Assembly (NCBI GenBank): GCA_038063895.1
Contig: JBBTUG010000006.1
Span: 6,701 to 70,700, forward strand
Length of the DNA: 64,000 bases
Origin: Patescibacteria group bacterium
GTDB lineage: Bacteria; Patescibacteriota; WWE3; JAMCXX01; JBBTUG01
Reading direction: 5' to 3'
The translations under genes and the position numbers were made by a program. Under the pieces are notes generated by a model. That model saw only the letters and a program-made list of their open reading frames with translations, made no database searches and was not told the DNA's origin. Numbering within the stretch: position 1 is the first letter of the stretch; every line of letters begins with the position of its first letter. This document shows, piece after piece, positions 5,942 to 61,067 of this stretch.

Positions 5942-7206
5942 ATATCGGGATTATTGGCGGGGGATTAACGGGGCTGACGGCAGCCCTAAGACTGGCGCAG
6001 AAAGGCGAATCCGTAACCGTTTTCGAAAGCTCGGATAGTTGGGGCGGCCTGGCCTCGGCTTATGAAATTATTCCCGGCGTTTTAATCGAGCGTTTTTACC
6101 ACCATATTTTTACCAATGATCGGGATATTCTCTCTCTCTGCGCGGAGCTTAAGATTTCCGGGAAACTGAAAGTTCTTGACGGGAAAACCTCGCATCTTTA
6201 TCAAGGCAAAATTTATCCCCTCGATACTCCGTTGACGGTTTTAAAATTTTCGCCCTTAAGTTTTTTCGACCGGATCCGTTTTGGCCTTGTTACCCTTTAC
6301 CTAAAATTAAAAACCAGTCCGGGATACTTCGACCGGGTAACCGCCGTGGCTTGGCTTGAAAAATGGTACGGGAAAAGGGCCTACGGGATTGTCTGGCAGC
6401 CTTTGCTGCGGGGAAAGTTTGCCGCGGACTACGACAAAATCTCGATGACCTGGTTTTGGGCCCGGGTGAAAAAAAGAACATCGAAGCTGATATATCCGGA
6501 CGGCAGCTTTCAGGTGTTAATTACTGCCTTAACCGAGGAGATTCTCCGGCTTCGCGGAAGTCTCCGGCTGGGGGTTAATTTGGAGAGTGTGATGCCCGAA
6601 GGAAACGGCTGGAAAGTTACTGTAGGGGGTTTTCCCCTGTATTTCGATAAATTGATTACCACGACTTCCCTGCCGACTTTTTTGCGGATGTTTCCGGCCC
6701 TGCCCGTGCTTTACCGGAGTCAGCTCGCTTCGATCAAATATCTGACGGCCCAGGTAATGGTTTTGGTTTTAAAAAACCGTTTAAGCGCCAACTACTGGAT
6801 GAACGTTGGGGAGACGGATTTTCCGTTTCTGGTGGTCGGGGAGCAAAGCAACCTGTTCGGGACGGAGTATTATAAGGGCCGCTCCGTGGTGTATTTAGGC
6901 AACTATCTGATGGATACCGAGGCGCGACTGAAAATGGATGAAAAAGAATTACTGGCTCTTTACGAACCATACTTAAAGAAGATTAATCCGCGATTTGAAA
7001 CAGACTGGGTCGAGAAAGTAGCAAATTTCGTCGGACCTTTCGCCCAGCCGGTCGTTGATTTAGCTTATCGTGATAAGATCCCACCGCTTCCGGTTCCGGG
7101 CTACAGTAACTTATTTCTGGCGACAATGGCTCAAGTTTATCCTTGGGACCGGGGAACCAATTACAGCGTGAAGCTCGCTAATGAGCTGGTCGCGCAATTT
7201 TTTTAA
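5938..7206 (+). CDS. FAD/NAD(P)-binding oxidoreductase (UDP-galactopyranose mutase / protoporphyrinogen-oxidase-like fold)
   Basis: N-terminal dinucleotide-binding motif 'IGIIGGGLTGLTAALRLAQKGESVTVFE' followed by 'GGLASAYE' and 'RFYHHIFTNDRDI'. These resemble UGM/amine-oxidase superfamily motifs. The gene sits between glycosyltransferases. Confidence 0.5.
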   Translation: MNIGIIGGGLTGLTAALRLAQKGESVTVFESSDSWGGLASAYEIIPGVLIERFYHHIFTNDRDILSLCAELKISGKLKVLDGKTSHLYQGKIYPLDTPLTVLKFSPLSFFDRIRFGLVTLYLKLKTSPGYFDRVTAVAWLEKWYGKRAYGIVWQPLLRGKFAADYDKISMTWFWARVKKRTSKLIYPDGSFQVLITALTEEILRLRGSLRLGVNLESVMPEGNGWKVTVGGFPLYFDKLITTTSLPTFLRMFPALPVLYRSQLASIKYLTAQVMVLVLKNRLSANYWMNVGETDFPFLVVGEQSNLFGTEYYKGRSVVYLGNYLMDTEARLKMDEKELLALYEPYLKKINPRFETDWVEKVANFVGPFAQPVVDLAYRDKIPPLPVPGYSNLFLATMAQVYPWDRGTNYSVKLANELVAQFF

Positions 7207-29680: not shown

Positions 29681-30835
29681 ATGAAAGAAATGGAAAACGA
29701 AAAGAAAAACATCGGAGTAATATTTGGCGGAATGAGCGCCGAATGCGAGGTATCTTTAGCAACGGGGAGATACGTTTACTCGCTGCTAAATAATAAAAAA
29801 TTTACCGGAACGCCATTTTATTTGGATAAAAAAGGCACTCTTTGGCAGGTTCCAGACAAACTGGTAATCCAAAATACGACGACGGATATCGAGCAGCGCC
29901 TGGAGAAGGACGCGAGCCGGGTAAATTTCGAGGACCTTCCCGGGAAAGTCAGCTGTGTTTTTAATGCGCTGTTGGGCAAGTACGGCGAGGATGGCTGTTT
30001 TCAGGCGATCTTGGAATTGTTGAAAATTCCTTACACCGGTTCAGGAATTCTCGCTTCCGCGTTGGGGATGGATAAAAAAGTCCACAAGAAAATGCTCTCC
30101 GGGGCGGGGTTTTTAGTGGCCAAAGATCTATTAATTCGTAATTCGGAATTCGATATTCGGAAAGTTACGGAAAAAGTTTCCAGGGAAATCGGTTTCCCCT
30201 GCGTTGTGAAGCCGACCCGGGAAGGTTCAAGTATGGGAGTGTCGGTGGTTAAAGAAGAAAAGGGTTTGGAAACAGCGTTCGAGTACGCCTTTAAGTATGA
30301 TCAGGAGGTTCTTGTCGAAGAGTATCTGAAAGGGATGGAGTTTACCTGCGTGGTTTGGGGCAACGACGATCCGAAAGCTATGCTCCCTACCGAAGTCGTG
30401 TTCGAGGGCGATTTTTTTACGTATGAAGGTAAATACATGCCGGGAAAAACCCAGACGATTACGCCCGCCCGGCTTTCGGAAGAGGGCTTGGCCGAGATAC
30501 AGCGCCAATCCGTGGCGATTTATCAGCTGATTGGTTGCCAGGGCTATGGCCGGGTTGACGGCTTTGTCGTTCCTAAGACCCTAAAGGTCGGGGAGCCCAG
30601 ACCTTTAGGGTCTTTGAGTTTGTCTGATATCTCAATTTACATCGCTGAGCCGCACACGGGAACAATTATGGTTCCTTCGTCTTTCGTTTTTCAACAGGCG
30701 GCGAAGTTCCGGATTGATCTGTCCACAGAATTCCATGGAAAAAAAGGTTCGATTCCGATGACCCCGCGCATTTTGGTAACAAAAATTATTGAGTTAGCCT
30801 TCGAAGCGTTTAGCAATAAGAAAGGATTATTATGA
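29681..30835 (+). CDS. ddl: D-alanine--D-alanine ligase (paralog 1; Lys-Tyr retained at the K215/Y216-equivalent position)
   Basis: ATP-grasp motifs 'FPCVVKPTREGSSMGVS' and 'FFTYEGKYMPG' (K at 30431-33, Y at 30434-36). The C-terminus is extended by a repeat insertion. Confidence 0.8.
   Translation: MKEMENEKKNIGVIFGGMSAECEVSLATGRYVYSLLNNKKFTGTPFYLDKKGTLWQVPDKLVIQNTTTDIEQRLEKDASRVNFEDLPGKVSCVFNALLGKYGEDGCFQAILELLKIPYTGSGILASALGMDKKVHKKMLSGAGFLVAKDLLIRNSEFDIRKVTEKVSREIGFPCVVKPTREGSSMGVSVVKEEKGLETAFEYAFKYDQEVLVEEYLKGMEFTCVVWGNDDPKAMLPTEVVFEGDFFTYEGKYMPGKTQTITPARLSEEGLAEIQRQSVAIYQLIGCQGYGRVDGFVVPKTLKVGEPRPLGSLSLSDISIYIAEPHTGTIMVPSSFVFQQAAKFRIDLSTEFHGKKGSIPMTPRILVTKIIELAFEAFSNKKGLL
30577..30612 (+). 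repeat. 36-bp palindromic element, copy B (in-frame inside ddl paralog 1)
   Basis: Perfect 13-bp arms 'gaccctaaaggtc'/'gacctttagggtc' with loop 'ggggagccca'. It encodes KTLKVGEPRPLG. Confidence 0.85.
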
Positions 30836-31884
30836 GCGGCATATTAAGAATTGGTTTATTTATCGGCGGGCTGTCTTCGGAAAAGGAAATCTCTTTGGAA
30901 TCAGGGCGTCACGTCTACAACAGTCTTGACCGGGAAAAGTATGAAGTTCTTCCGATCTTTGTCGATAATGAAGCCCATCTTTGGGAGATTGAGGAGGGGT
31001 TGCTGTGGAAAAATACCACCACAGATCTTAAAGATGCCCTCGGTAGCGGGGGAAGCCGGGTTTACTACGAAGATTTAAGAAATAAGATTGATTTTGCTTT
31101 TATTTGCCTCCACGGAAAATACGGCGAGGACGCCTTCCCGGGACTTTTTGAGATACTGGGAATTCCCAACAACGGCGCCTCCGTTTTGGGAGGAGCATTG
31201 TCAATGGACAAATACCGCCAAAGGATGGTTTTGCAGGCGGCTGGGATCGATACTCCAAAGTATTTTCCAATCGAAAATTCCAAGTTCCAAATTCCAAATT
31301 CCAAAATATTTGATGAAGTAGAAGCTGTGTTAAGTTACCCGGTAATGGTGAAGCCGTCGCGGGAGGGAAGTTCAACCGCACTGCATAAGGTGAATAACCG
31401 GGGAGAACTTGAAGCCGCACTTTCCGATGCCTTTATTTACGATAAAGTCGCCTTGGTCGAGGAAGTTTTGGTCGGAACGGAGTTAACGACATTGGTTTAT
31501 GGCGAAGGCGAAAATATTAAAGCCCTGCCGCCATCGGAACTTCTCCGGGGAGGGGATTTCCTTACCGCCCAGGAAAAATTTCTGCCGGGTGGGGCGCAGA
31601 TGATAACCCCGCCGCGGCTACCTGTGGAAGTAGTTGAGGAGGTAAAGAGAGCAGCGGTGAATACGTTTCAGGCGTTAAGTCTTAAGGTCTATAGCCGGAT
31701 CGATTCATTTTACGTTCCGGGTCGGGGAGTGGTAATTTTGGAGCCGAATAACCCGCCGGCGATGACGCCCTCGACGGCTTTGTGGCTTGAGGCTGCCGAA
31801 GAAAACCTTAACGCTTCCCAATTGTTAGATGATCTGATCCGTATCTCCCTTGTCCTCCACGCCGCCAAACTCGGCCCACTTTAA
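30832..31884 (+). CDS. D-alanine--D-X ligase (Ddl paralog 2; Phe replaces Tyr at the Y216-equivalent position)
   Basis: 'YPVMVKPSREGSSTA' and 'FLTAQEKFLPG' (F codon at 31579-31581). About 350 aa. Confidence 0.75.
   Translation: MSGILRIGLFIGGLSSEKEISLESGRHVYNSLDREKYEVLPIFVDNEAHLWEIEEGLLWKNTTTDLKDALGSGGSRVYYEDLRNKIDFAFICLHGKYGEDAFPGLFEILGIPNNGASVLGGALSMDKYRQRMVLQAAGIDTPKYFPIENSKFQIPNSKIFDEVEAVLSYPVMVKPSREGSSTALHKVNNRGELEAALSDAFIYDKVALVEEVLVGTELTTLVYGEGENIKALPPSELLRGGDFLTAQEKFLPGGAQMITPPRLPVEVVEEVKRAAVNTFQALSLKVYSRIDSFYVPGRGVVILEPNNPPAMTPSTALWLEAAEENLNASQLLDDLIRISLVLHAAKLGPL
31278..31306 (+). repeat. Heptanucleotide tandem repeat (ttccaag/ttccaaa x4) inside the ddl paralog 2 coding sequence
   Basis: Seen directly. 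It encodes 'KFQIPNSKIF'. The unit length is not a multiple of 3. Confidence 0.7.
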
Positions 31885-31885
31885 G

Positions 31886-31914
31886 TTGACAAATTGCCTA
31901 TAGTGTGGTATAAT
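31886..31914 (+). promoter_or_regulatory. Perfect consensus sigma70 promoter: TTGACA - 17 nt - TG-n-TATAAT
   Basis: 'ttgaca' at 31886-31891, the 17-nt spacer 'aattgcctatagtgtgg', and 'tataat' at 31909-31914 with an upstream TGg extended -10. Confidence 0.6.
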
Positions 31915-31919
31915 AAACT

Positions 31920-32420
31920 CAGAGTCTTGAAAAAAGATTCCAAATCCCGAAAGGAGGTGCCATTCGATTATCTTTTTGGCGCTTTATTTGGGAATCCCCA
32001 ATCGGCAAGGGGATTTTGGGAGGTAAGTAACTCCCTAAGACGACGGCCACATTGATGGAACGCCCGTCGCCGAGACAGAAGGAAGCTGCCTTTACGGTCC
32101 GAACTGACTATCAGAGGCATCTGGTGGTTGGTTTGGGAGCACAGAGTTACGAGGATAACTCTGCGGTTAACCGGAAAGGATGGGTCGGATGAGGAAAGCA
32201 TCCCACCTGCTTCTGTCTTGAAGGAAATGGAGAAAGTTCCCGGCTAACAACCCCGTCTCCTAGCCAAGGTTGTTGTTCATTCTAACGTTGGAGAGCCTAG
32301 CGTCCTCGCGCAAAGCTCTATGCACCTTGTATGTTGCCACGATGAATACCGGTAAGGGAGAGAACCGAACGTTGGTCCCAACCCGTGATCCCACAGGGAT
32401 CACCATTCGCAATCGAGGAG
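31920..32420 (+). ncRNA. Candidate about 500-nt structured non-coding RNA or long leader (family unidentified), GC-rich
   Basis: There is no + strand ORF of 60 aa or more between the consensus promoter and the small ORF at 32427. GC content is elevated. Long-range complementary segments are present, for example 'agacagaag' at about 32073 with 'cttctgtct' at about 32207, plus local hairpins such as 'ggaatcccc/ggggatttt'. Confidence 0.35.
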
Positions 32421-32426
32421 GTTGCA

Positions 32427-32768
32427 ATGGGTAACAATTTCGTGGCACGGATCGCCTGGCGTCTGACCAAGGAGCTCGGGCTGACGCTCGAGATTCTTGA
32501 GACAGAAGTCATGCGGTCAGGCGAAGGCCCGGTTTGGAACGCGATTTACGTCCGGGTGAAGCGTATGAATCCCAGTACGTTGGGAATCATCGTTGCCACC
32601 GGTCGTGAGTTCGGTTCCAAATACCCGACCCTTTATCACGTACACTGCGGTACGTACGTGAATAAGTACTGGTCGGGGCGTCATACTCTGCGGGTTCTCG
32701 CCACCACAGCGCTCATATGCAAGATGTATGAGTTGCTGAAGGAGGAGGAGCTGCAGGCGCTGACGTAA
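32427..32768 (+). CDS. Hypothetical 113-aa protein with a strong SD ('gaggagg'), within the GC-rich module
   Basis: 'atcGAGGAGGttgcaATGggt'. The ORF is GC-rich and is followed by an intrinsic terminator. Confidence 0.4.
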   Translation: MGNNFVARIAWRLTKELGLTLEILETEVMRSGEGPVWNAIYVRVKRMNPSTLGIIVATGREFGSKYPTLYHVHCGTYVNKYWSGRHTLRVLATTALICKMYELLKEEELQALT

Positions 32769-32785
32769 CCGTGCTCGCGCCAAAG

Positions 32786-32827
32786 TGCCATGTTGGGGTA
32801 ACCTAACGTGGCATTTTCTTTTTTTAA
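32786..32827 (+). terminator. Rho-independent terminator
   Basis: Stem 'tgccatgttgggg'/'cctaacgtggca' followed by 'ttttcttttttt'. Confidence 0.55.
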
Positions 32828-32958
32828 TAGTAAATTTTCAATCGATTCATCTCATTTATTTTTGTTCGGTACTACTGATCTATTTTCCCCGGTTTTATAA
32901 ACATTTATCTACCAATATATACTTGCTATAGCAGTATGTTTTCGTCATAATCAAAGGG

Positions 32959-33840
32959 ATGAAGATAAGAAAGTGTAAATTAGAAGGTGACTCTAGGGAG
33001 TCCTGCCGCGAGCTCTTCTTAGTTGCCGGCTGGGATATAAAGACTACCAACTCCTTTTCCCGGTTTCTGGCCGAATTGGATGCAACCCCGGCCTCCAAGA
33101 TATTCATCGATTCAATGATCAAGTTTAAAGAAATGTATCCGCCGCTTCGAACCGGTCCCCGTCAGGTTGACTATTTAGGGCTCCTTCGCGGCGAAAATGA
33201 GTATAGGGCAATGAAACGGGCTCAATTTTACCTCAATAAGAAAGACCTTGTGAAGGTTTCCGGTGGACTAGGCGGCAAAAGATTAGTTTTGACAACCCGG
33301 GCCCACCGTATTTTTTACGAAGACTACCCTTTGGCCAAACTACGTCGGGAAAAGTGGAATGGGCTGTGGACAATAGTGATGTATGACTTACCGGAGAAAG
33401 AAAAAAGCTTTCGGGAGTATTTAAGACTAAAGTTAAAAGGACTTGGTTTCGGCAGTCCGCAGGAAAGTGTTCTAATTTCGCCATTGCCAATTGCCGCTCC
33501 GACCCAGGCGTTAATAGAGGGGGAGCAAGCTGAAAGATACGTTTGGGTGGTTTCGGCTCAACGGGTTTTAGGTTTGGACAATCGCGAGGTGGCGGAGAGA
33601 GCGTGGAAACTTGATGAACTTAACATGCTTTATAAATGTCTCTTAAAAGTTTCTCCGGTCGTTAAGGGGAAGAATGATAAGAGTCTTCTCGATGCGTGGC
33701 GCCGCTGCTTTTTAGCGCTGGACAATGTTGACCCGTATCTGCCGCTTGAACTTCTTCCTAAAGATTGGCAAGGAGAGAACTGCCGAAAAGTGGCTGAATC
33801 GTCAGGGTTCGCCGGGTTAATAAAGTCAATTTTTCAGTAA
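32959..33840 (+). CDS. PaaX-like family protein, paralog 2
   Basis: 'WNGLWTIVMYDLPEKEKSFREYLRLKLKGLGFGSPQESVLISPLP' is the same PaaX_C-like signature as the gene at 11571. Confidence 0.5.
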   Translation: MKIRKCKLEGDSRESCRELFLVAGWDIKTTNSFSRFLAELDATPASKIFIDSMIKFKEMYPPLRTGPRQVDYLGLLRGENEYRAMKRAQFYLNKKDLVKVSGGLGGKRLVLTTRAHRIFYEDYPLAKLRREKWNGLWTIVMYDLPEKEKSFREYLRLKLKGLGFGSPQESVLISPLPIAAPTQALIEGEQAERYVWVVSAQRVLGLDNREVAERAWKLDELNMLYKCLLKVSPVVKGKNDKSLLDAWRRCFLALDNVDPYLPLELLPKDWQGENCRKVAESSGFAGLIKSIFQ

Positions 33841-33913
33841 ACCCCATTTTTTTCTACTGCGAATTACTACAATTTCACCTTGCTATAGCTAGTAATATTT
33901 GTAGTAGATATAT

Positions 33914-60451: not shown

Positions 60452-60502
60452 TAATGGCTGTAAATTATTGACAATATATAATAAGTACGTTATAATGTAC
60501 GT

Positions 60503-60865
60503 ATGGATACTAAAACCACCCTCTCGATCTCCCAAGCCCGCAAAGTCATTTTTTCAATCGCCGAAAAAGTCCAAAGGCCTGGCGCTTACTACACTCTGAC
60601 TGAAAAAGGCCGACCGAAGGCTGTCGTTATGTCGGCGCAGGAATTCGAAAATTGGCAAGAGACTCTAGAGGTAATGCAGGAATTTCCGGATTTAAAAAAG
60701 GATATTGTCGAAACGGAATCGGCTGTTAAAAGCGGTGAATACAAAAGCTGGACGACTTTGACGACCCTTTTGGGCCGGGAAGGCTTCGTTGTCGCCGAGA
60801 ATACTCCGAAAAGGTATGCAGTTCCAACTACGACTAAAACCAAGCGCGCAAAAAGAGTTAGATAA
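60503..60865 (+). CDS. Phd/YefM-family type II antitoxin
   Basis: 'ISQARKVIFSIAEKVQRPGAYYTLTEKGRPKAVVMSAQEFENWQETLEVM'. Confidence 0.65.
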   Translation: MDTKTTLSISQARKVIFSIAEKVQRPGAYYTLTEKGRPKAVVMSAQEFENWQETLEVMQEFPDLKKDIVETESAVKSGEYKSWTTLTTLLGREGFVVAENTPKRYAVPTTTKTKRAKRVR

Positions 60866-61067
60866 ACTGGAGAAAACAGCCCGTTATAAGGTTCTGGCGG
60901 CTTTTTCGGAAATCGCTAAGGACCCTTTTGTCGGGAAGAAATTGGAAGGGGAGTTTCGCGGCTGCTACTCTTACCGGGTTTGGCCTTTTAGGATTATTTA
61001 CCTCATCTACAAAAAAGAGCTCCTCGTTCTCGTTATCCGCATCGGTCACCGCCAAGGCGTTTATTGA
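60816..61067 (+). CDS. RelE/ParE-family type II toxin
   Basis: 'FRGCYSYRVWPFRIIYLIYKKELLVLVIRIGHRQ'. The start is set at MQFQ and overlaps the antitoxin 3' end. Confidence 0.65.
   Translation: MQFQLRLKPSAQKELDKLEKTARYKVLAAFSEIAKDPFVGKKLEGEFRGCYSYRVWPFRIIYLIYKKELLVLVIRIGHRQGVY

Follow-up and report, generated by a model that had tools for sequence, protein, structure and literature searches.

A small-gene cassette with a predicted structured 5' leader, extended in one species, in the dcw cluster of a small Patescibacteria clade

Several described bacterial systems join a small protein to a long or heavily folded transcript. Type I toxin mRNAs (hok/sok, aapA1/IsoA1, tisB/istR) have long folded leaders, a start codon buried by long-range pairing and structure that runs into the open reading frame (ORF), and the toxins that they encode are membrane peptides of 30-60 amino acids. 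The dual-function RNAs SgrS/SgrT, RNAIII/hld and SR1/SR1P encode peptides of 26-43 amino acids, which lie outside the main structured or regulatory part of the RNA. Strong excess structure over an entire coding region is more characteristic of the genomes of RNA phages and of type I toxin mRNAs than of ordinary genes in bacteria. Here we describe a locus that invites comparison with these systems, as well as with long structured 5' untranslated regions (UTRs) and with prophage morons. It lies in a 64,000-nt stretch of a Patescibacteria genome (contig JBBTUG010000006.1; the window, whose positions serve as coordinates throughout) and consists of a promoter, a long leader, a gene for a 113-amino-acid protein and a terminator, located between the D-Ala-D-Ala ligase gene ddlB and a PaaX-like gene. 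An initial reading made from the letters alone (the sequence-only reading) had proposed that this unit is a self-contained module with a structured non-coding RNA (ncRNA) of about 500 nt.

We read positions 31915-32426 as the cis-acting 5' leader of an acquired small-gene cassette, carrying a species-specific 5' extension that is predicted to fold autonomously, and we give this reading a probability of roughly 0.55. According to it, the cassette (promoter, leader, ORF and terminator) would have entered one small Patescibacteria clade by horizontal acquisition, with the convergent genes ddlB and murF on either side of its insertion site, and transcription would start at the promoter at 31886-31914. 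A conserved leader of 91 nt, which encloses the Shine-Dalgarno (SD) sequence and the AUG through pairing with codons 5-7, would gate the initiation of translation. The extension of about 420 nt, a large self-contained fold in place of the small 5'-terminal hairpin of the relatives, would most likely act in cis as a 5' stabiliser or regulatory add-on. Finally, the whole transcript, including its coding part, may be selected for strong sense-strand RNA structure.

Each of the described systems shares some features with this cassette. Like a prophage moron, it consists of one small gene that has a strong promoter and a terminator to itself and a composition unlike that of its flanks, it sits between conserved genes, and it shows a patchy distribution and mosaic alleles suggesting recombination. 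Unlike a moron, it does not lie in a recognisable prophage, and no phage or plasmid homologue was found; to our knowledge, morons are not known for hyper-structured mRNAs. With type I toxin-antitoxin loci it shares the stand-alone intergenic position, the long and highly folded leader, the start codon buried by long-range pairing and the extension of mRNA structure into the ORF. It differs from them in its product, predicted to be a soluble, basic, all-alpha protein of 113 amino acids with a confident globular model, in the lack of a convincing antisense promoter (the best minus-strand sites score 9/12) and in the absence of a PADLOC match; since there is no small hydrophobic peptide either, we rejected a type I toxin-antitoxin locus. 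As in the dual-function RNAs, one promoter-to-terminator transcript combines a small protein with excess RNA structure, but here the 113-amino-acid ORF is itself the structured part, and it has no known base-pairing target or RNA-level function. Long structured 5' UTRs (cspA, the ompA 5' stabiliser hairpin, ribosomal-protein leaders and riboswitches) resemble the cassette in three respects: a 5'-terminal stem-loop near the predicted start, a conserved junction that embeds the SD/AUG region, and organisation as one cis transcription unit. The leader of the cassette differs in that it matches no curated cis-regulatory RNA family and no ligand, protein or temperature trigger can be assigned to it; at about 506 nt in the window, it is also four times as long as that of the nearest relatives. 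We classify the locus as a structured-leader small-gene cassette, in which the new elements are an unannotated protein family without a fold relative and a family-wide excess of mRNA structure. The cassette is a stereotyped, self-contained expression unit that is patchily spread, and the excess structure of its family makes it possible to ask concretely whether mRNA structure, stability or a second RNA-level role can be under selection in an entire gene family of ultra-small bacteria.

Cassette layout and conservation of the leader

The cassette begins 2 nt past the stop codon of ddlB (30832-31884, + strand, identified with Pfam), which forms the left border of the insertion site. Its first element is a sigma-70-type promoter on the + strand (31886-31914), with the -35 element TTGACA at 31886-31891, a 17-nt spacer and the extended -10 element TGgTATAAT at 31906-31914. 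The promoter matches the consensus at 12/12 positions, plus the TG at 31906-31907, and its position predicts a transcription start near 31921, which gives the leader its length of about 506 nt. Allowing at most one mismatch, this promoter pattern occurs at four sites in the window against 0.12 expected, and three of the four are perfect; perfect promoters are thus rare in the window, yet not unique to the site at 31886. The interval from 31915 to 32426 (about 510 nt) contains no + strand ORF of at least 60 amino acids, the longest frames there being 53, 46 and 54 amino acids. It ends with the SD sequence GAGGAGG (32415-32421, + strand), followed by the 113-amino-acid ORF (32427-32768, + strand), which starts with the ATG at 32427. 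An intrinsic terminator (32782-32827, + strand), composed of a 16-bp stem (32782-32817) and a T run, marks the end of the cassette. The promoter/terminator scan detected no + strand promoter-like site between 31914 and 32894 and no + strand terminator-like site between 31731 and 32782. Because there is no internal + strand promoter or terminator within the leader, the ORF would depend on the promoter at 31886, and the leader occupies the space between the ORF and its only usable promoter. The spacer 3' of the terminator is AT-rich (GC content 0.39-0.43) and leads to the PaaX-like gene. The promoter, the interval free of longer ORFs, the strong SD sequence with its ORF, the clean terminator and the AT-rich spacer had all been recognised in the sequence-only reading and were recovered here. 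Its observation of a GC content higher than in the flanks holds in part: it applies clearly only to the ORF (0.55-0.56), the leader being at 0.51, with 0.45 on its downstream and 0.49 on its upstream side.

A hypothetical protein from a Patescibacteria metagenome-assembled genome (MAG) has the same sequence as the ORF product, which also has three close homologues at 84-88% identity. Related and family loci were fetched for comparison and are denoted by L-numbers. In L001/L002, L003 and L004, which were reached through homologues of the ORF, and in L030, which was found through its DdlB, the cassette is located directly after ddlB, and the order in these four relatives is ddlB, promoter, leader of about 120 nt, ORF and terminator. 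The promoter is a 12/12 match in L001, L003, L004 and L030 as well. The terminator is kept, with compensatory changes, in L001, L003 and L004, and in L001 it directly adjoins the end of the convergent murF, at its stop codon. The more distant L031 (DdlB 67% identical) has no cassette: 18 nt separate the stop codon of ddlB from that of murF, which is convergent. Because the site is empty in L031, the whole promoter-to-terminator unit is seen to have been inserted into the dcw cluster in a single small clade. This empty site, together with homologous cassettes in unrelated contexts, supports the suggestion of the sequence-only reading that the module might be a foreign cassette.

Conservation of the leader itself is split. 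Homology between the window and its relatives runs from the promoter up to TATAATAAA and restarts at TTGCCACGA (32334). The 416-421 nt between these two points are missing in every relative (L001/L002, L003, L004 and L030); the replacement there is a stretch of 32-40 nt, which comprises a small hairpin (GCCCAGAYGGGC) as well as a U-rich tract. Even L030, which has the closest non-identical DdlB (89% amino-acid identity), is without the insert. Its carriers are six other assemblies of the same strain, which differ by 0-1 single-nucleotide polymorphism (SNP) over up to 6.3 kb, with none within the insert. The RNA of about 500 nt, previously taken as one module, consequently separates into 91 nt that are conserved in the clade and about 420 nt that are found in one species only. 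A synteny comparison, which had been proposed as a check, shows that the long RNA part of the module is not conserved in relatives. A novel large ncRNA, understood as a conserved entity, is not borne out, as about 420 of the 510 nt are absent even from L030 and no homologue was found in any of the sequences searched. The option of a long cis-regulatory leader gains support from the sole promoter at 31886 and from the conservation of the last 91 nt around the start codon. In agreement with the non-coding call, neither a match to a known RNA nor a conserved reading frame was found across 31920-32420. The claim of a conserved ncRNA of housekeeping size is mostly deflated by these results, and what replaces it is unusual and testable.

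The conserved leader (32336-32426, + strand; 91 nt) was examined using an alignment of five clade members and the RNAalifold consensus fold. In this consensus, GCCACGA (32336-32342) pairs with UCGUGGC in codons 5-7 (32440-32446), closing a three-hairpin junction, in which the core of the SD sequence GAGGAGG is placed in a 5-nt hairpin loop and the AUG pairs with CAU. The AUG has a calculated probability of being unpaired of 0.02-0.08 in four of the five clade members and of 0.37 in L003; for the SD sequence, the value is 0.71-0.74 in all five. The 91 nt are 92.6% identical to those of L030, compared with 81.9% for ddlB, and their folding energy deviates from dinucleotide shuffles with z = -3.6. 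Structure that is conserved with the gene and involves the ribosome-binding region was found for 32336-32426 only. Judging from these predicted pairings, the 91-nt leader most likely sets the rate of translation initiation.

Alleles of the cassette are mosaic. The L030 allele is near-identical to that of the window and L003 through codon 36 and far more diverged thereafter (L030 1438-1623 versus window 32427-32612). The allele of a long hairpin in codons 6-32 groups the window with L003 and L030, codons 86-87 group it with L004, and L004 combines its hairpin allele and codons 86-87 in a way that is unlike both L001 and the window. At the level of sequence, this mosaicism suggests recombination between alleles of related species. 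A public gene call for L001, P0003 (156 amino acids; 6001-6471, GCA_041643115.1), begins 123 nt upstream of the conserved SD-ATG and crosses the structured leader. Its start is probably mis-annotated, the conserved ATG being at L001 6124; as this call illustrates, the structured leader is an annotation trap.

The species-specific 420-nt block

The species-specific 5' leader domain (31915-32335, + strand; about 420 nt), which is absent in relatives, makes up the bulk of the ncRNA proposed in the sequence-only reading. It folds with a minimum free energy (MFE) of -156.4 kcal/mol (z = -4.5), a stability that was reached in none of 100 dinucleotide shuffles. The predicted fold is an autonomous, multi-branched domain, and 23 of its 134 MFE pairs are G-U. 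The complementary blocks GAGACAGAAG and CUUCUGUCU, which had been noticed by eye, do take part in it: GAGACAGAAGG (32072) pairs with CUUCUGUCU (32208) in the MFE fold. For the whole leader (31921-32427), dinucleotide shuffles give z = -5.4 on the + strand versus -2.9 on the - strand. When the full transcript of 906 nt is folded, 177 of the 178 pairs outside the 420-nt block remain unchanged; in these models the block is a modular 5' addition to the transcript.

Strong and strand-specific predicted structure, the share of G-U pairs and autonomous folding would also be consistent with a separate, possibly trans-acting structured ncRNA that is co-transcribed with the mRNA and processed from it, and such an RNA would be new, since no Rfam family was matched. 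We regard this explanation as distinctly unlikely, because the 420 nt are absent from every relative, even from the one with an 89%-identical DdlB, because searches of the window, the fetched loci, phages and plasmids revealed no homologue and scans of viral contigs only chance matches, and because there is no terminator or other 3' end signal of its own before the conserved leader; in addition, structural selection cannot be shown from the sequence of a single species. Similarity searches with the block returned nothing in the window, 31 loci, phages or plasmids. Two short patterns from the insert were scanned in viral contigs, one of which was unmatched and the other had only chance matches of 17-18 nt.

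A cmscan search of the leader, the check that had been recommended along with the original proposal, identified no known RNA family: there was no Rfam match in the window at the gathering score and none at E<=10 in 31700-33000 or 31915-32430. ARAGORN found no tmRNA. The weak resemblance to RNase P CR-I/CR-V and to the signal recognition particle (SRP) RNA that had been seen by eye has no counterpart among Rfam matches at E<=10. We rejected a housekeeping RNA (RNase P RNA, tmRNA, SRP RNA or 6S RNA) on the basis of the lack of any covariance-model match at E<=10 and the absence of the 420 nt from L001, L003, L004 and L030. A known riboswitch, T-box or other Rfam cis-regulatory leader was also rejected, there being no match in the window leader and none at the gathering score in 13 related or family loci.

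Presence or absence between close relatives at one precise site is what a mobile insertion in the leader would produce, whether a group I intron, a miniature inverted-repeat transposable element (MITE) or some other small element. In its size and in how strongly it is structured, the block fits an ORF-less intron, and group I introns are reported to be frequent in Patescibacteria (PMC13011429). This origin is nevertheless very improbable. The 516-nt query gave no Rfam group I or group II match (Intron_gpI, domain V/VI) at E<=10, and the block takes the place of the relatives' 32-40 nt, GCCCAGAYGGGC hairpin included, instead of splitting them, so that there is no clean interruption. No terminal inverted or direct repeats and no target-site duplications were found at the block, which speaks against a MITE or insertion sequence, and there is no second copy in the 64-kb window or in any of the fetched loci.

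The block could also be non-functional filler, either a decayed gene fragment or debris of illegitimate recombination, with incidental structure. It occurs in one species only and is dispensable in relatives, its GC content of 0.50 is close to the coding average of the genome, and the same lineage gained the PaaX-like gene and the AT-rich spacer beyond the ORF, as expected of a rearrangement-prone locus. We consider filler unlikely, given that no shuffle folds as well, that the sense strand folds better than the antisense strand and that the block folds without perturbing the conserved structure, which would be unexpected for random debris. A detectable protein remnant is also lacking: tblastx comparisons of the block with all loci yielded no significant match. 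We also rejected the view that the block is a pseudogene, be it a decayed paralogue of the family gene or of another kind, as hmmsearch with the family profile on six frames returned negative scores and tblastx and nhmmer were empty.

Several points weigh against the interpretation that we favour, a cis-acting leader with an autonomously folding extension. The 420-nt block is represented by one sequence, its seven copies being identical apart from one SNP outside the block, and a z-score by itself is no proof of function. The closest relatives manage with leaders of about 120 nt, which makes the extension dispensable for the cassette. One leader hairpin gains a disruptive change in L030. Finally, few helices are positionally conserved in the codon alignment of the family, the structure being lineage-specific.

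Two further features of the insert were observed. The 10-mer GAGACAGAAG is present both in the insert (32072-32081) and in the 3' arm of the codon 6-32 hairpin (32499-32508), and CUUCUGUCU of the insert (32208) could pair with either copy, which would provide an alternative long-range pairing; with about 0.14 shared 10-mers expected by chance, the duplication was judged not significant. An SD-like AAGGAGG (31951-31957) is followed 5 nt on by an ATT and an open frame of 22 codons (IRLSFWRFIWESPIGKGILGGK and a stop), the whole spanning 31951-32032; the SD-like motif sits in a stem of the MFE fold. This frame is probably not an upstream ORF, as it has no canonical start codon.

The protein family and structure in its coding regions

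An exhaustive phmmer search with the 113-amino-acid protein identified 81 cluster representatives at E<=1e-3, with lengths of 83-250 amino acids and 30-50% identity; a further match, to a 1757-amino-acid HYR-repeat protein, was rejected as spurious. The family shares the motif P.TLGIIAA.G ... LY.VHCGTY..KY.SG..L..LATTA. His73 and Cys74 are among the conserved residues. AlphaFold2 with a 56-sequence alignment predicts a six-helix, all-alpha protein with high confidence (predicted local distance difference test score (pLDDT) 95.4, predicted template modelling score (pTM) 0.89), whereas an alignment of four near-identical sequences yields a pLDDT of only 49. The protein matches no known fold, and no sequence matches to it were found in Pfam, PHROG, PADLOC, NCBIfam or PDB. 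There was no match in tblastn searches of phages and plasmids, and scans with the family pattern gave nothing in species-representative genomes (two scans) or viral contigs. Word searches of the literature found no description of the motif or the family. The only family member with an assigned taxon is from a Patescibacteria MAG.

Differences between the window and L003 ORFs are distributed over the three codon positions as 10/8/21, and the window and L030 ORFs differ by 16 synonymous and 10 non-synonymous codon changes. Because there are 81 remote homologues of similar length, a confident predicted fold and synonymous-biased divergence, the ORF is a real protein-coding gene of an uncharacterised family. 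Within codons 37-85 there is no synonymous change among the window, L001, L003 and L004, while their ddlB genes differ at 40-50% of third positions. Such a pattern suggested constraint on the nucleotide sequence, or even that the ORF might be spurious and the whole unit an ncRNA; this was rejected in view of the 81 remote homologues, the model with a pLDDT of 95 and the divergence of L030, which has 11 synonymous and 8 non-synonymous differences from the window in codons 37-62. Recent recombination or gene flow of cassette alleles appears to be the better explanation for the identity of codons 37-85.

Outside the clade, the gene is found alone among unrelated neighbours in L011, L014, L015, L016, L017, L019 and L021; these neighbours include capsule genes, groEL, genes for tetratricopeptide repeat (TPR) proteins, a ferredoxin and an epimerase. 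The contig of L018 is too short to show the upstream context, and promoter counts refer to the other seven remote loci. In all seven, the upstream sequence contains a promoter that scores 9-11/12 and has the TG. The leaders there are 47-205 nt long, with an AGGAGG-like SD sequence. In L014, L016, L017 and L021, the ORF is followed by a recognisable terminator-like hairpin and T run. The GC content of the ORF is usually above that of the flanks, for example 0.51 versus 0.28-0.30 in L021 and 0.64 versus 0.38 downstream in L016; in L015 and L018 it is not clearly above that of the downstream flank. Against this background, the 506-nt leader of the window is the extreme of a variable trait.

Structure in the transcript extends well beyond the leader. 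The window ORF has an MFE of -161.3 kcal/mol, compared with -121.2 +/- 5.0 kcal/mol for synonymous-codon shuffles (z = -7.95). All 12 family ORFs analysed, those of the window and 11 other loci, eight of them remote and in unrelated contexts, are more stable than their synonymous shuffles, with z between -2.7 and -9.5. As controls, 16 chunks of 342 nt from six neighbouring genes gave a mean z of about -0.2 (range -3.15 to +1.39). In each of the 12 ORFs the sense strand is more stable than the antisense strand and deviates more from its own null; this bias points to hairpins in RNA rather than DNA. The sequence-only reading was correct in calling structured RNA here, though the structure is not confined to the leader and continues through the ORF. 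Among remote loci, leaders of 104-206 nt have z between -2.4 and -3.7, and the 50-nt leader of L011 is not structured.

One element of the window ORF is the long hairpin of about 31 bp in codons 6-32 (32444-32523, + strand), which exists as two clade alleles with preserved pairing. Between the alleles of the window and L001, 24 of 80 nt differ, yet they share one architecture, their MFE values are almost equal (-40.5 and -40.8 kcal/mol), and six of seven double changes keep the pair. One conserved RNA fold for the whole family was rejected, as the codon-aligned RNAalifold consensus is weak (-19 kcal/mol), its sole recurring elements being short hairpins at the P.TLG and HCG codons. Judging from these predicted folds, selection seems to act on the state of "being folded", which each lineage realises in its own way, and not on one particular fold. 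Such family-wide structure suggests that the mRNAs have been selected for stability or resistance to nucleases, or that they have a second role at the RNA level.

The short hairpin over the invariant H-C-G codons (window 32634-32657) recurs with different sequences in L014, L018 and L019. Its arms are CACGUAC/GUACGUG in the window clade, CCAAGU/ACUUGG in L014 and CCAGGU/ACCUGG in L018 and L019. The amino acids flanking H-C-G co-vary (H..V versus Q..L/W), as judged by eye and from the family consensus fold, without statistics.

A more far-reaching proposal is that the cassette family represents a previously unrecognised class of mobile, hyper-structured coding RNAs, whose fold has a function of its own, and that the 420-nt domain is a newly acquired functional RNA module, a large structured RNA of a novel kind fused to the mRNA. 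We consider this proposal a long shot. If it were true, the function of the RNA could be, for example, nuclease-resistant persistence, a sponge or scaffold role, or binding to its own basic protein.

Neighbouring genes and other perfect promoters

Upstream of the cassette, ddlB is the second of two tandem D-Ala-D-Ala ligase paralogues, at 29681-30835 (384 amino acids) and 30832-31884 (350 amino acids), which overlap by 4 nt; the pair is kept in relatives. A NUDIX gene is located directly upstream of ddlB in L001, L002 and L031, and in L001 and L002 it lies between the two ddl genes. Downstream, the AT-rich spacer and the PaaX-like gene (32830-33900) separate the cassette from murF in this species only. 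The PaaX-like gene product contains PaaX_M, a Cas2-like middle domain, and PaaX_C, and it has weak Cas2 matches in PADLOC and NCBIfam. In L001 the terminator leads straight to murF, and the corresponding position in L003 is occupied by a NUDIX gene.

The two other perfect 12/12 promoters of the window belong to the regions 60468-61067 (+ strand) and 49222-48214 (- strand). One of them precedes a likely antitoxin/toxin pair, a 120-amino-acid ORF and an overlapping 92-amino-acid ORF, which by eye we take to be Phd/YefM-like and RelE/ParE-like, respectively. The other precedes two small ORFs resembling membrane proteins (94 and 211 amino acids). In this genome, a perfect match of a promoter to the consensus seems to be the sign of an accessory cassette.

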